Shown here piece by piece: positions 53,765 to 57,775 of a stretch of 64,000 bases of DNA. The notes beneath the pieces were generated by a model, which saw nothing but the letters and a program-made list of their open reading frames with translations, did not search any database and was not told the origin of the DNA. How positions within the stretch are numbered: position 1 is the stretch's first letter; the number at the start of each line of letters is the position of its first letter. Origin of the DNA: Candidatus Borrarchaeum weybense (lineage in GTDB: Archaea; Asgardarchaeota; Sifarchaeia; Borrarchaeales; Borrarchaeaceae). The DNA lies in contig JAHQJS010000004.1 in the NCBI GenBank assembly GCA_019057385.1, positions 288,001 through 352,000 of the forward strand. The letters run 5' to 3'. The position numbers were made by a program, and so were the translations under genes.

Positions 53765-56700
53765 TTAGGGCAAAAGATCCTTAACTATAACTGGAGGACC
53801 TTTTTTCTGTGGTGTATAAATTCCCTCCATGTGTTGAAACCTTTCAAACATTAGAAGAAGAGCTTCTTTATCTGGAGCATAAATAAAGGGGACGAATCGC
53901 TTCTTTTCTAGCAAAAAATCCTTGAGTTGTAGTGCGCACTGCCTTATAGCATCCTTTACTGTCATATATTCATCCAGATAGTATATCTCTTGATTAAGTA
54001 TATCACCAACCAGTCTCTCAACTTTGTAGTGCCCGTTCCACGTTAAATGATAGAATCGTTCACGCTCTAATGTTTTACGTATCTTAAAATCGGCTTTTGT
54101 AAATTTACCATATATACATGCTAAGATGAAGGTGAACCTGAATAGGGGAAGAAACATCTCTCGGAAGTCAACGACGGTGCCAAGAAAGGATCGCCGTGTT
54201 TTCTTAAAATGCAATATCAGTTCATCGGGCACCCATGAGAACCCTACTTCAGCGAGTGCTTTTCGACAGTAAAAATTAAGATGGCGATAGACGGCATTGA
54301 GTGCCGCACTAAAGGGAGTTCGCGCCTTTGCTTCACCCAGAAGCACCACTGTGGCAATATAGCGATCGAGGGTACGACTAATGATCTCAAAGTAACTGCC
54401 TTGCAGCAAATGCTTGGGAACCTCCCAGGCAACGCTTTCCACTACCCCTTCAAGACCGCGAAGGTTGTCAATATTGCCCCGCCAATAGAGAAAAGTGTAC
54501 GCCACGCGATCCAGCAGTTGGGATAAGAATTCCTGTGCCTCCGCAGAAGATAATATCCCCTCTTTTTCAAACCAGAGAATTGCATTGGCGAGCCCCATAT
54601 TTTTACCCATCACCAGCAGCCTCGCTAATAACGTGCCTCGTTCCGTCCCTCTGAGTTGCTGGGCGGTGTGTTTCAGTTCATCAGCTAATTGTTGTTTCTC
54701 TGGTGTCAGTGTATGCTGTGCAAAGAATCTGCCTTCGGGCGAATTAATATCAATGAGTTTCTTGCCATAGTTCTTACGAACTAGTTGCGAAACTTCTCCA
54801 CCCTCGATGATGATGTGACAGATAGCACCGATTAAATATCGATGTGTTGTTTTCCCGTCCTTTAGTGCATGAGCAAATCGTTTTTTCTTAATATCAAGCC
54901 GTTCACCGCACTTGACACGAATGGTTCGTTTTGGTCGTCGAATGTAAACCTTTGTTTTTTTAACCCGCGGGACATAATTTCCGGGCTTGCCTAAAAGCAA
55001 ATCCAATCCTTTTAGCATCAAACCTCGGTTGCCTGGTTTCACCACCAAGTCACCTTTCATGGTCAAATAATAGCGGGAATTGCATTCGGGACAGACTGTG
55101 TATTCATTATAGCAGGATGGCAATTCCACCGTACCGCCGGAGTAGCAGAAGTAGCACGGAGTATCATCGAGTGTTTCTTGTATGGCACTAATTGTGCGCT
55201 TTTTTAACTCCCGCGCTTTCTGATGGTATTCGCAGGCACCCATCTTTGGTGCGGCATAGGATTTCCTTTCTTGCCTTCCAATTTTTGTGTTATACTTTTG
55301 ATTCAACACACAGATATGTGCACGTTTCGATCTGCGACGATCCTTCATAGAATTTATCCGAAAGAAGCCACATGAACCACAGGTGAGCCGCAGATGTTCA
55401 GGAATACTCATATTCGCGTCTGCCACATAGATTTTAGGGCGACCTCGTAACTGCCCTCGAGAGATAAATTGGATTTTTCCTTGGATTCCTAACTTCTTTG
55501 CATGTTTCACTACCGTAGTATGGTGAACTGGTCGATTATACTGTTTACGAACCTCTGACGTAATTTGTGCGTAAGAGATGACCTTATATTGATTAATAAT
55601 GTTATAAATTGCTTCTTGAAGTCCCGGATATGGTATCGGTCTGTACTTTGGATACCTGCGTCTCCTTCTGCCTTTGTTCCCTCTTTCAACTTCAGGCTCT
55701 TTGTATTCAGGATTTAGTTTTGTGGTAAGTTTTTTGGCAACCCTTGCCGCCCTCGGGTCACTGCGCCCCAGATAGTCATAACTTGCTTCTGCGATCCACG
55801 ACGCCGTCTTTCTATGTGCTTCTGCATCACCCGGTCGTATGTTTACCCGAGTTGCAGCTTTTGTGACCGAAGAACCCTGACTGAGTAACCATACGAAAGA
55901 GGCATATTGCTGGGCGGTATATCGTGTGGTGTTGCTCACTTCATGTATGCTTCGACCGATTAGTGTAATTACGTGCCGGGAGAATTCCCGTTCTGAGGAG
56001 CAATGATGTGTGGCAAAAAACTTCTTGATCCTTAAGGCGGTTTTAATCGGCAGTAAAAATTGGCTGGCCCAGCGTCCTTTGGCTGTTGCACTAAACTTTC
56101 CACCATTTCTTTTGATAAAACCTTCCTTGATAAGTGTGTGAAGGATTCCCTCTCTTTTTTTCTTCGGTTCATCCTGCTTAGGTCGAGCTAACAGTTTCTC
56201 TCTTAGTTGTTGTGTAAAGTCTTTCAACTGGTCGTGGGTGAATGGTGTCAACAGTAAGCGAAGCTCTCCGTTTTTGACCCCGCGTGTAGTGGTGTTCTTC
56301 TTGACCCACATGAAGAATTTTCTCGTTACACGTTTCAAGTCGAATGGGAGAGAGCCTTCGTGCGTTTCGCGCAATAAGGACAGTAAATGAAGTTCGTTAT
56401 TGAGCCGACAAAGCTCCTCTTCCTGGTTCATGAGTGCGTTATTCATTAGTTCGGACCAATTCTGTAGCAATGCTTTGTGTTGATGCCAGAAGTAATGTCT
56501 TTCAAGTTTGTGAAGTAATTGATTCGTGGATGCCGAGCCTCTAGCTATCAGGGTGAGTACAATATCTGCCAAAGAAGAACGTGCCTGGCTTGTTATACGA
56601 TGTTCTTTGACTATCAATTGTCCCTCGACGATTTGTATCTCCTTTTGCTTCAAAATTTCTTGATCGTCCCCCACGAAGATCAGATCAGCATAGCCCACCC

Positions 56701-57775
56701 GATGATGGCGCGGTCGTGCCGCCCTGCCACTCAATTGTATCAACAGGTGAGGGTTGAACATCCCGGCATCGGCAATTATCACCCGTTTGATCGGAAAGTC
56801 CACCCCCTCTCCGTATTGAATCGTTGACAGAAAAACCTGAAATTCACCCTTCTTAAGCCGTCTCATAGCTTCTTGTTGTTCCTCTTTACTGAGCCCGGCG
56901 TGACTGTAGCCCACGGTGAGATCGAGTCCACAACTCTTAAGAAAGGACTGCAACTCTATAGCTCGTTGTTCAACCTGATTTCGTGTGTAGCAAAAGATGT
57001 GCACGATTTTAGTCCCCTGATCATCACCATACGAGCGTTGTTCAAAGGTCTTTTTGATCAAGCGAGCGAACAGAAAGCGTTTTTTTCGTTCAATCTGCTC
57101 TATGGTGCTGCCTGAAACCCCACAAGATGACACAATAAGCTTCGACTGCCGTTCGTTGGTATGGATAAGTTGAGCGTCAAGCCAACTTACCAGTTCCTCG
57201 GCATTCCCCAGAGTAGCCGAGAGATAGATGATATGCGGGCGAGGGCGTAACCAAGATCTTGCATTGACGATTGCAGTTTCTAGGCGAGCACCCCGCCCTT
57301 TGTTGCCCAGATTGTGCAGTTCATCGACCACAATCAATCCTATCTTGTCTAAAAACGGATACTCGAAATGCTTAACTAGCAGTCCATTGAAGGATTCGTA
57401 GGTGCTGATGAGGATATCCGCCGTTTCAAGCTCTTCAGGAGACGAACGGTCATCTCCGCTGACTTTGAGGATGGTACAGGCGTCGTGATACCACTCTTTG
57501 AACTTGTCATACATCTGATCGATCAGCCGTTTGGTCGGCTCAAGAATTACACAGCGCATCCCTTTTCCAAGCACGCGGGTAGACACTATTTGGGATATCA
57601 AGGTTTTTCCCGAAGCGGTAGGAGTGTACAACACCTTGTCCTGCCTTTGTTTACCAGAAAAACATGCCTCCCATTGAAAGTCGTAGAGGGCGTTAATGTC
57701 AGCCTGTTCCAACCGTTGACGTATGAATTCGTAGTTTAACCCTCTTTTCGTCATTGTAATGAACTGGCCTCTCAA
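53765..57775 (-). CDS. Ski2/Hel308-like SF2 helicase fused via wHTH and Zn-finger segments to a Cas1-like integrase domain
   Basis: PTASGKT, DELH, SAT, QLSGRAAR; CGSC, CYFC, CPEC; C-terminal LRGLEG, PFSAALNAVY, ILH, DFRE, IRQCALQL...FVPF following the Cas1 pattern. Confidence 0.82.
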   Translation of the reverse strand: MRGQFITMTKRGLNYEFIRQRLEQADINALYDFQWEACFSGKQRQDKVLYTPTASGKTLISQIVSTRVLGKGMRCVILEPTKRLIDQMYDKFKEWYHDACTILKVSGDDRSSPEELETADILISTYESFNGLLVKHFEYPFLDKIGLIVVDELHNLGNKGRGARLETAIVNARSWLRPRPHIIYLSATLGNAEELVSWLDAQLIHTNERQSKLIVSSCGVSGSTIEQIERKKRFLFARLIKKTFEQRSYGDDQGTKIVHIFCYTRNQVEQRAIELQSFLKSCGLDLTVGYSHAGLSKEEQQEAMRRLKKGEFQVFLSTIQYGEGVDFPIKRVIIADAGMFNPHLLIQLSGRAARPRHHRVGYADLIFVGDDQEILKQKEIQIVEGQLIVKEHRITSQARSSLADIVLTLIARGSASTNQLLHKLERHYFWHQHKALLQNWSELMNNALMNQEEELCRLNNELHLLSLLRETHEGSLPFDLKRVTRKFFMWVKKNTTTRGVKNGELRLLLTPFTHDQLKDFTQQLREKLLARPKQDEPKKKREGILHTLIKEGFIKRNGGKFSATAKGRWASQFLLPIKTALRIKKFFATHHCSSEREFSRHVITLIGRSIHEVSNTTRYTAQQYASFVWLLSQGSSVTKAATRVNIRPGDAEAHRKTASWIAEASYDYLGRSDPRAARVAKKLTTKLNPEYKEPEVERGNKGRRRRRYPKYRPIPYPGLQEAIYNIINQYKVISYAQITSEVRKQYNRPVHHTTVVKHAKKLGIQGKIQFISRGQLRGRPKIYVADANMSIPEHLRLTCGSCGFFRINSMKDRRRSKRAHICVLNQKYNTKIGRQERKSYAAPKMGACEYHQKARELKKRTISAIQETLDDTPCYFCYSGGTVELPSCYNEYTVCPECNSRYYLTMKGDLVVKPGNRGLMLKGLDLLLGKPGNYVPRVKKTKVYIRRPKRTIRVKCGERLDIKKKRFAHALKDGKTTHRYLIGAICHIIIEGGEVSQLVRKNYGKKLIDINSPEGRFFAQHTLTPEKQQLADELKHTAQQLRGTERGTLLARLLVMGKNMGLANAILWFEKEGILSSAEAQEFLSQLLDRVAYTFLYWRGNIDNLRGLEGVVESVAWEVPKHLLQGSYFEIISRTLDRYIATVVLLGEAKARTPFSAALNAVYRHLNFYCRKALAEVGFSWVPDELILHFKKTRRSFLGTVVDFREMFLPLFRFTFILACIYGKFTKADFKIRKTLERERFYHLTWNGHYKVERLVGDILNQEIYYLDEYMTVKDAIRQCALQLKDFLLEKKRFVPFIYAPDKEALLLMFERFQHMEGIYTPQKKGPPVIVKDLLP

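Follow-up and report, generated by a model that had tools for sequence, protein, structure and literature searches.

What does a helicase joined to a Cas1 domain do in a stretch of archaeal DNA that contains no CRISPR array? The question is raised by a 64,000-nucleotide (nt) stretch of the Candidatus Borrarchaeum weybense genome, here called the window (C4:288001-352000 of genome G000, which comprises 4.18 Mb in 8 contigs), in which one long gene encodes such a fusion (protein P0001), referred to below as hel-Cas1. Positions are those of the window unless they carry the prefix C3, C4, C5 or C7, which denotes a contig of the host genome G000. No CRISPR array was found in the 64-kb window, the short-period direct repeats in it being TPR coding repeats only.

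We observed that hel-Cas1 leads a module of fixed order. It is followed, all on the minus strand, by a gene for a Cas7-like RAMP protein, a predicted structured RNA (RNA A), a gene for a second RAMP-like protein with an HD domain (RAMP-HD) and another copy of the RNA (RNA B), and the whole module lies in an island that is missing from sister genomes. The best reading of this module is that of an array-less, type III-derived CRISPR-like unit of the ARAMP kind, led by hel-Cas1. As to its function, we lean, with clear reservations, toward an ARAMP-type system that behaves as an integrative element, RNA guided and self-homing, in which hel-Cas1 is the likely integrase.

The hel-Cas1 protein

The initial annotation of this DNA had described the gene as encoding a 1336-amino-acid (aa) fusion of a Ski2/Hel308-like helicase, a winged helix-turn-helix, a zinc finger and Cas1, with intact superfamily 2 (SF2) helicase motifs. 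The union of helicase and Cas1 in one frame was borne out by the open reading frame (ORF) itself, by Pfam and by profile comparison with the PDB, and the SF2 motifs are indeed all in place in the translation: Walker A TASGKT (53-58), DELH (151-154), SAT (186-188) and QLSGRAAR (347-354). In Pfam, DEAD covers aa 32-194 (92.5 bits) and Helicase_C covers aa 258-355 (54.9 bits). The N-terminal 430 residues matched 2zj2 (E 9e-37) and 2p6r (E 1e-26) in the PDB, placing the core with Hel308/Ski2-like helicases at the family level. With these Hel308/Hjm proteins, its best matches in both PDB and NCBIfam, hel-Cas1 shares the RecA1/RecA2 core and motifs I, II (DExH), III and VI; it differs from them in its added zinc clusters and Cas1 domain, and sequence alignment to Hel308 fails past aa 430. 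Since the Hel308 equivalog models gave 112-156 bits against cut-offs of 887-1216, hel-Cas1 is probably neither a Hel308 orthologue nor the cell's own Hel308.

In the middle region, eight cysteines are invariant across seven full-length homologues. They form two clusters (C799, C802, C822 and C848; C874, C877, C895 and C898) at aa 799-848 and 874-898, that is, nt 55082-55381, the second being a CxxC-17-CxxC ribbon, and this Cys-rich region probably binds zinc. While the zinc-finger part of the earlier description thus gained eight candidate ligands, the winged helix did not fare as well, its match to Pfam HTH_45 (14.5 bits) falling below the threshold of 25.5. An Atlas lead from the middle region to Helicase_dom4_arc/Sec63 (score 0.77) points weakly toward a ratchet domain of the Hel308 type. 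All three regions of hel-Cas1 are under purifying selection, with ratios of nonsynonymous to synonymous substitution rates (dN/dS) of 0.12-0.24 among paralogues. The gene is also richer in GC than its surroundings, as had been noted (45.2%, against 35.4% in the 3-kb flanks), and close hel-Cas1 paralogues are likewise enriched (39-46.5% versus 34-38%).

The C-terminal domain is a diverged member of the Cas1 family. Pfam Cas_Cas1 matched aa 958-1234 with 31.9 bits against a gathering threshold of 22.3, and the C-terminal 397 residues alone reached 35.5 bits; the assignment as diverged follows from the TIGR00287 equivalog, whose cut-off of 71.7 bits was missed (25 bits). An exhaustive HMMER scan of 1.84 billion representative sequences yielded only 26 proteins at E<=0.001, and from these matches and the genome's own paralogues a 29-sequence alignment of the domain was made. 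In this alignment E170, R195, R199, N221 and H250 are invariant and D264 is nearly so (domain numbering), with E170, H250 and D264 corresponding to E1109, H1189 and D1203 of the protein. In the PDB, the 29-sequence profile matched Archaeoglobus Cas1 (4n06, E 1.6e-19) and Methanosarcina casposase (6opm, E 3.1e-17), besides eight other chains of Cas1. This depth of alignment was needed, as neither the single sequence nor a 9-sequence profile recovered any Cas1 among PDB sequences.

Structure prediction gave the same answer. An AlphaFold2 model of the domain (mean predicted local distance difference test score [pLDDT] 85.4, predicted template modeling score [pTM] 0.78) was compared by Foldseek, and the top 50 matches were exclusively Cas1 or casposase chains (for the best, E 2e-11 and TM 0.55-0.63). 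About 375 columns were aligned, so that both Cas1 domains, the N-terminal beta domain and the C-terminal helical catalytic domain, are covered. The earlier claim that the catalytic residues are kept, namely, E in LEG (1108-1110), H in ILH (1187-1189) and D/E in DFRE (1203-1206), is upheld, in that the Glu, His and Asp..Glu motifs fall in columns aligned with 4n06 and 6opm. The domain thus has a Cas1 fold and its residues align with the Cas1 active site. Judged by sequence, hel-Cas1 is a helicase fused to a predicted, catalytically intact Cas1 integrase domain.

Neither cas2 nor a gene for a family B DNA polymerase (PolB) lies near hel-Cas1, in agreement with the initial annotation: no PolB-like ORF is present in the island, and the sole cas2 of the genome (C4:154630-154842) lies 188 kb away. 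That cas2 adjoins a canonical cas1 (269.6 bits; the pair spans C4:153602-154842, outside the window), and the organism therefore has at least one standard adaptation module too.

Structured RNA, islands and junctions

tblastn searches of G000 revealed six hel-Cas1 loci and about five loci with RAMP and RAMP-HD alone; the RAMP gene had 11 matches, its own included. The same gene order is found in Ca. Borrarchaeum yapensis, which shares the genus of the host, and in a JGI metagenome contig.

The RNA element of these modules is ∼120 nt long and has 23 copies in the genome, all oriented as the genes and nearly all located within modules. Seven pairs of its 5' hairpin show compensatory double changes, the cells with double changes numbering 33, compared to 10.1 in shuffled alignments (0 of 500 shuffles was as high), and 97% of cells are paired, compared to 40-53% when the partners are slid. 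The other helices are invariant and hence uninformative on pairing either way. A covariance model made from 19 copies detected the RNA beside modules of Ca. Borrarchaeum yapensis (six), an ENA contig (one) and the JGI contig (two), and yielded nothing at either of two solo hel-Cas1 genes or at the empty sites. No Rfam match at E<=1 was obtained for the region 50900-58300. The element is predicted to be a structured RNA. The 81-aa ORF overlapping RNA B was rejected as a protein, its apparent homologues being DNA-level copies of the RNA element, some of them intergenic. Four copies are orphans (C4:1262879-1263026, C4:562854-563000, C7:107991-108138 and C7:767870-768016), and the one at C7:767870 adjoins a fragment of a RAMP-HD gene.

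At all five loci tested, the corresponding site is empty in sister genomes of the same genus, and the module occupies one end of an island of 5 to 28 kb (Table 1). Prefoldin is directly followed by ftsY in the three genomes compared at the window locus (G004, G002 and G001). In the host, ftsY stays intact, because the island brings its own diverged 5' copy together with an upstream region. The smallest hel-Cas1 island, C3:91587-98503, contains hel-Cas1, RAMP, RAMP-HD and RNAs and nothing else. No tRNA genes were found near the islands in seven loci, nor within 45000-64000 of the window.

The likeness between the DNA of paralogous modules ends exactly at the 3' end of the last RNA scaffold. Past one scaffold per locus, 25 to 43 nt match host DNA on the same strand at the island junction; at four loci, the distance between the RNA-side junction and the start of the match is 0 to 12 nt, and at the fifth the target lies within ∼30 nt. 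In the window, this guide-like stretch agrees with the three sister empty sites at 83-86% over 35 nt, starting from guide base 1, and with the resident copy (50792-50825) at 82% over 34 nt. In the C3:91587 island, the guide agrees with the empty site of G004 at 31 of its first 32 nt, counted from the insertion point, and the occupied site has drifted to 74%. The guide of the C3:60790 island is identical to the G004 empty site at 35 of 37 nt, with the junction 12 nt into the target, and this island furnishes a new start codon for pyrD. In the C5 island, which has three RNAs, the guide belongs to the first, at a distance of 1.7 kb, and matches at 87% over 31 nt, ∼5 nt from the junction. The match of the 28-kb island (77% over 30 nt) overlaps the start of the flanking gene and lies within ∼30 nt of the junction, which is less sharply defined there. 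One more guide match, of 89% over 35 nt, was found in Ca. Borrarchaeum yapensis. In both loci that were folded, those of the window and of the C3:91587 island, a stable hairpin and a T-rich run follow the guide.

Four of the five targets overlap a co-oriented host gene at its 5' end (ftsY, pyrD, a PRC-barrel gene and a 95-aa gene), to which the island gives a new start, and the fifth lies upstream of a gene for a pyridoxal phosphate (PLP) enzyme. The five islands, with three close hel-Cas1 paralogues, have five unrelated targets. The guide copy itself lies 130 to 1700 nt inside the island, directly 3' of a scaffold. Being internal, abutting the scaffold and differing between closely related modules, it is neither a target-site duplication nor an att core. 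At the level of sequence, an RNA-guided choice of target is well supported.

Table 1. Module, island and target features (window numbering unless prefixed)
Feature	Position	Strand	Remarks
hel-Cas1 gene	53765..57775	-	single 1336-aa ORF, TTG start; Pfam DEAD, Helicase_C and Cas_Cas1 all over threshold
SF2 helicase core, Hel308/Ski2-like, aa 16-430	56486..57730	-	motifs I, II (DELH), III, VI
Middle region, aa 431-940	54956..56485	-	possible winged-helix/ratchet-like part (weak leads); two 4-Cys clusters
Cas1 domain, aa 941-1336	53768..54955	-	E1109, H1189, D1203, E1206
Promoter-like stretch with TATA, upstream of RAMP gene	53443..53501	-	87.5% identical to stretch upstream of RAMP-HD
Cas7-like RAMP gene, 269 aa	52609..53418	-	Pfam RAMPs 27.9 bits versus 22.1
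Predicted structured RNA, copy A	52453..52580	-	directly past RAMP stop codon; then promoter-like stretch of next gene
RAMP-HD gene, 270 aa	51542..52354	-	N-terminal ferredoxin/RAMP-like part and Cas10/Csm1-type HD (aa 119-270)
TATA-like box for RNA B	51488..51506	-	upstream stretch conserved at other terminal copies
Predicted structured RNA, copy B (scaffold)	51347..51470	-	own TATA-like box; overlaps listed 81-aa ORF 51294-51539
Guide-like 35 nt directly past scaffold B	51311..51345	-	matches ftsY from insertion point
Terminator-like hairpin, -19 kcal/mol, then T-rich run	51269..51302	-	directly past guide-like stretch
Resident ftsY target	50792..50826	-	begins at first host base beyond island
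Inserted island, 10,467 bp	50827..61293	.	between prefoldin and ftsY; site empty in G004, G002, G001
Island-borne replacement of ftsY first 114 nt	50827..50940	-	72/114 (63%) identical to G004
Displaced original ftsY first 114 nt, beside prefoldin	61294..61407	-	107/114 (94%) identical to G004
Further island, 10.6 kb	C5:117988-128548		empty in sister genomes
Further island, 6.9 kb	C3:91587-98503		empty in sister genomes; smallest hel-Cas1 island
Further island, 5.2 kb, without hel-Cas1	C3:60790-66040		empty in sister genomes
Further island, 28 kb	C4:395619-424036		empty in sister genomes

The profile of the Cas7-like RAMP family matched Cas7-type chains alone in the PDB, weakly (E 0.007-0.9). 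RAMP-HD had no Pfam match, its family profile had none among PDB sequences, and Foldseek returned none at E<=0.001 for its model (pLDDT 65.8). Structural alignment with VIA-align over all representatives paired aa 119-270 with residues 2-218 of Csm1 (6ifk_A) at a Z score of 9.2, compared to 4.5 for the next unrelated chain, and the N terminus resembles RAMP proteins weakly (Z 3.4-3.8 to Cas6b and Cmr1). H132-D133, H140, H162-H163 and D182 are invariant in RAMP-HD. A predicted contact between the Cas7-like protein and RAMP-HD scored 0.58, against 0.00 for the best control, which weakly suggests that the two proteins associate. Of 80 solved complexes, 58 passed the mark used, as did 2 of 110 mismatched pairs; the passes at 0.60 or under comprised only 7 of these 80 complexes and both mismatches. 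The contact runs share at least 84% of their contacts, with a partner pLDDT of at least 72. Because Cas7-Cas5-type complexes are among those solved, the pass may reflect likeness to them.

Several smaller features of the islands and their surroundings were noted. The promoter-like region of RAMP-HD after RNA A (52399-52451) is 87.5% identical over 48 nt to that of the Cas7-like gene (53454-53501, minus strand), a likeness that recurs at other loci (80-97%); it could reflect a duplicated promoter-gene-RNA unit or an autoregulatory guide comparable to the CRISPR repeat-like regulatory RNAs of cas operons. As cargo, the window island carries on the plus strand, opposite to the module, genes for a 746-aa protein with ∼16 TPR repeats (58229-60469) and a 188-aa protein with a weak HhH-GPD match (60641-61207), both absent from the site in sister genomes. 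A soil metagenome contig from another study (run X4, ∼94% identical) reads from ftsY into the end of the island and covers the guide and RNA B (49500-51491), and a related strain elsewhere hence has the same insertion. At the right end of the 6.9-kb island (C3:91587-91650), the last ∼40 nt are similar to the scaffold's 3' end (13 of 14 nt in its core) and adjoin the host target at the spacing of scaffold and guide; this island end may be a former scaffold, or one that still functions, reading directly into the flank. Nearby, in the region C3:90934-91313 (L013:3932-4065), G000 carries an insertion of a ∼130-nt repeat compared with G004. Many copies of this repeat occur in each of the four genomes of the genus, and it may be a miniature mobile element.

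Mechanism and competing explanations

In the mechanism that we propose, the Cas7-like and RAMP-HD proteins would bind the RNA, which would locate a host target by base pairing, and hel-Cas1 would be recruited to the resulting R-loop. The helicase could then open or remodel the DNA, and the Cas1 domain would attach the island to target DNA at the border of the paired stretch, whereby the island would provide a new promoter and 5' end to the interrupted gene. The Cas1 domain is our candidate for the inserting enzyme because it is the only nucleic-acid-joining enzyme in the minimal island. That the helicase might work on the target after R-loop formation had been suggested in the initial annotation, and such a role has become more plausible because guide-like RNAs exist. 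More tentatively, we suggest mobile elements of a new class, in which a type III-derived Cas7/RAMP-HD ribonucleoprotein with a single long-scaffold guide RNA directs a helicase-fused Cas1 that inserts islands of 5-28 kb at the edge of a programmable ∼35-nt target, at the 5' ends of housekeeping genes. The chance that the module represents some new class of RNA-guided, Cas1-based integrative element seems to us substantial.

A number of observations weigh against integration by hel-Cas1 under RNA guidance. Every characterized Cas1-family integrase reaction uses, to our knowledge, defined DNA ends, and neither inverted repeats nor common end sequences were found among three islands. The flanking direct repeats vary in length (∼8, 114 and ∼300 bp) and are diverged (the two ftsY copies are 61% identical), a pattern that does not resemble a fixed target-site duplication. 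Contigs of four metagenome DNA runs over 49500-62500 showed neither an excised or circular form nor a joint skipping the island. Seven of the ∼12 RNA copies that have no promoter-like stretch after them show no detectable match nearby, and guide-target identity at occupied sites is just 74-96%. The module at C3:60790-66040, which lacks hel-Cas1, still has a guide-junction match, so that hel-Cas1 may be dispensable for this pattern or act in trans. Finally, distant hel-Cas1 fusions of 1169 and 1289 aa (loci L042 and L043) are accompanied by neither RAMP genes nor the RNA.

Some of these points count in favor of another explanation. Outside casposons, the established role of Cas1 is to integrate spacers beside a repeat, and hel-Cas1 might similarly be an adaptation-type enzyme that sets or exchanges the ∼35-nt guide beside its scaffold, as a one-spacer analogue, while the island spreads by guided HD cleavage and recombinational repair, or otherwise. 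We regard this main rival as doubtful. It would account for a guide that always abuts the 3' end of the scaffold, precisely where paralogous modules differ, as well as for islands without inverted repeats or conserved ends and for the matching guide retained without hel-Cas1, and the HD nuclease domain it calls for is intact in RAMP-HD. It sits less easily with a module that has no cas2 and in which no scaffold appears to be followed by a second spacer. Moreover, the host sequence to the left of the junction is duplicated in the islands instead of being replaced, unlike in gene-conversion homing, and the smallest of them offers no other candidate for joining DNA.

The flanking direct repeats also resemble att duplications. 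The module might instead be a defense system, array-less and possibly not programmable, that rides islands with an unrecognized mode of integration, the guide matches being att-like leftovers of that process. Islands commonly carry defense genes, and ARAMP and HRAMP are, in the review summaries, presumed defense systems with nucleases (PMC8730458, PMC12669027). We nevertheless consider this account unlikely, as the match lies well inside the island and not at the junction, always 3' of a scaffold and before the hairpin, and close hel-Cas1 paralogues accompany unrelated targets. The smallest island, furthermore, is the module alone, and none of the seven tyrosine recombinases of the genome lies in the five islands (serine recombinases and Tns proteins were not searched for).

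That some distant fusions stand alone, and that Hel308-family helicases act at stalled forks, could also suggest a host enzyme of repair or replication restart, Hel308-like with a Cas1-like nuclease domain and unrelated in function to the RAMP genes and RNAs. This is very improbable given that the gene order is strictly kept over six loci and in other genomes and that the gene lies within insertions missing from the sister species; with a match in just 12 of 400 genomes of the phylum (E<=1e-5), hel-Cas1 is not a core gene. Casposons, which were reportedly described by Krupovic and colleagues in 2014, have a family B DNA polymerase, terminal inverted repeats and a 14-15-bp target-site duplication. 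A casposon-like, self-synthesizing transposon whose transposase has an added helicase is hardly credible and was rejected, for although the Cas1 profile matches casposase 6opm nearly as well as CRISPR Cas1 and the islands are mobile and multicopy, the islands show none of these three hallmarks (the ends of three islands were compared for inverted repeats), and the minimal one has no room for a polymerase.

Known systems and distribution

How does the integrative element that we favor relate to systems already described? Like casposons, the module places a Cas1-family enzyme in a mobile island, at specific sites beside conserved genes, with no cas2 and no array. Apart from the hallmarks just named, it differs from them in that its Cas1 is helicase fused and its target choice is apparently set by RNA, not by protein.

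ARAMP and Asgard-specific Cas1 variants are said to have been named by Makarova and colleagues in 2020 (CRISPR J 3:156). Review summaries describe ARAMP as an array-less, type III-derived Asgard system with nucleases, "a distinct form of Cas1" in most loci and an enigmatic mechanism, and they suggest that some Asgard Cas1 homologues are parts of new mobile elements (PMC8730458, PMC12669027). By these descriptions the module resembles ARAMP in its Asgard host, the lack of an array, the diverged Cas7-like protein and second RAMP, the nuclease and the distinct Cas1; the summaries mention no RNA component, guide, insertion sites or helicase fusion. In the literature searched, which included a 2024 review (PMC11656645), we found no analysis of an RNA component, guide or insertion site for ARAMP systems. 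To this we add a conserved RNA element, structured and bearing a guide-like 3' stretch, together with five insertions whose sites are empty in sister genomes and whose junctions coincide with the match to the guide. For loci that have been called enigmatic since 2020, with CRISPR-like proteins and Cas1 and with no array and no known RNA, there is now a concrete hypothesis with coordinates.

CRISPR-associated transposons (CASTs; Tn7-like I-B, I-F3 and V-K) use a dedicated guide for homing, drawing on atypical or truncated repeat-spacer units (PMC8730458, PMC11656645). In both cases, a nuclease-poor CRISPR-derived effector and a dedicated guide steer, or in our module would steer, a mobile element to a conserved host gene. 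The minimal island, however, consists of three module genes and no further ORF, TnsA, TnsB and TnsC being absent (no Tns profile search was made), with Cas1 as the candidate joining enzyme. The islands also insert at the edge of the target and not ∼50 bp off, their ends are not conserved as those of CASTs are, and the scaffold is one of ∼120 nt instead of a CRISPR repeat. If Cas1 does the joining, this would be natural RNA-guided DNA integration independent of CASTs, by Cas1 instead of a Tn7 transposase, with three proteins and one RNA acting at the target edge, and hence of interest for genome engineering. It could supply a missing functional link among casposons, CRISPR adaptation and CRISPR interference, and it would show that, in the archaeal lineage nearest to eukaryotes, integrase and effector modules can cooperate for purposes other than immunity.

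A long scaffold at the element end with a short guide matching the DNA that flanks the insertion is also reminiscent of the omega RNA/reRNA of TnpB and IscB in IS200/IS605 and IS607 elements, as is the proposed role in keeping or spreading the element. The proteins are unrelated, however (Cas7-like, RAMP-HD and hel-Cas1 versus a RuvC nuclease), and the guide of the module is an internal copy rather than the flank itself. Cas1 is tied to processing enzymes in other settings as well, such as type I-F Cas1 with Cas2-Cas3 (an SF2 helicase), reverse transcriptase (RT)-Cas1 and Cas4-Cas1. All of these resemble hel-Cas1 in coupling Cas1 physically to an enzyme that processes nucleic acid. Unlike in type I-F, the helicase of hel-Cas1 is of the Hel308/Ski2 type and not Cas3, it is fused directly to Cas1, and there is neither Cas2 nor an array.

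Close relatives of hel-Cas1 are narrowly distributed. Among 400 genomes of the phylum, relatives with at least 35% identity in the Cas1 domain were found only in G000 and Ca. Borrarchaeum yapensis, and a search for related loci with the 9-sequence alignment recovered Ca. Borrarchaeum yapensis alone. A metagenomic relative of 82% identity on an ENA contig (ZHAO22-1 scaffold_287; L001:10001-15447) has hel-Cas1 followed directly by RAMP-HD and a single RNA and lacks a Cas7-like gene. The stretch past its scaffold is 68% identical over 47 nt to sequence at the module's other end, where a radical SAM gene starts. One paralogous locus in G000 (C4:417451-421462; L016:4431-8469) is split into a helicase ORF of 567 aa and a Zn/Cas1 ORF of 781 aa (P0040) that overlap by 11 nt, which reflects either a frameshift or a fusion that is naturally divided.

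The distant Cas1 matches, from the 12 genomes mentioned above, extend over 8 of 85 genera and are mostly open frames of 1000-2770 aa. Public records label the distant fusions as DEAD/DEAH helicases only, so that even if the mechanism proposed here is wrong, a helicase-Cas1 architecture recurs in large Asgard proteins (1140-2770 aa) under that name. Frames of 1800-2770 aa with a diverged Cas1 were seen in metagenome-assembled genomes of Candidatus Helarchaeota (P0052, P0070 and P0074) and at two loci of G150/G145 (L052 and L053). Pfam scans of distant representatives identified several helicase-Cas1 fusions; among these large proteins, those scanned have an N-terminal SF2 helicase, and one Helarchaeota example adds a DHH phosphoesterase domain.

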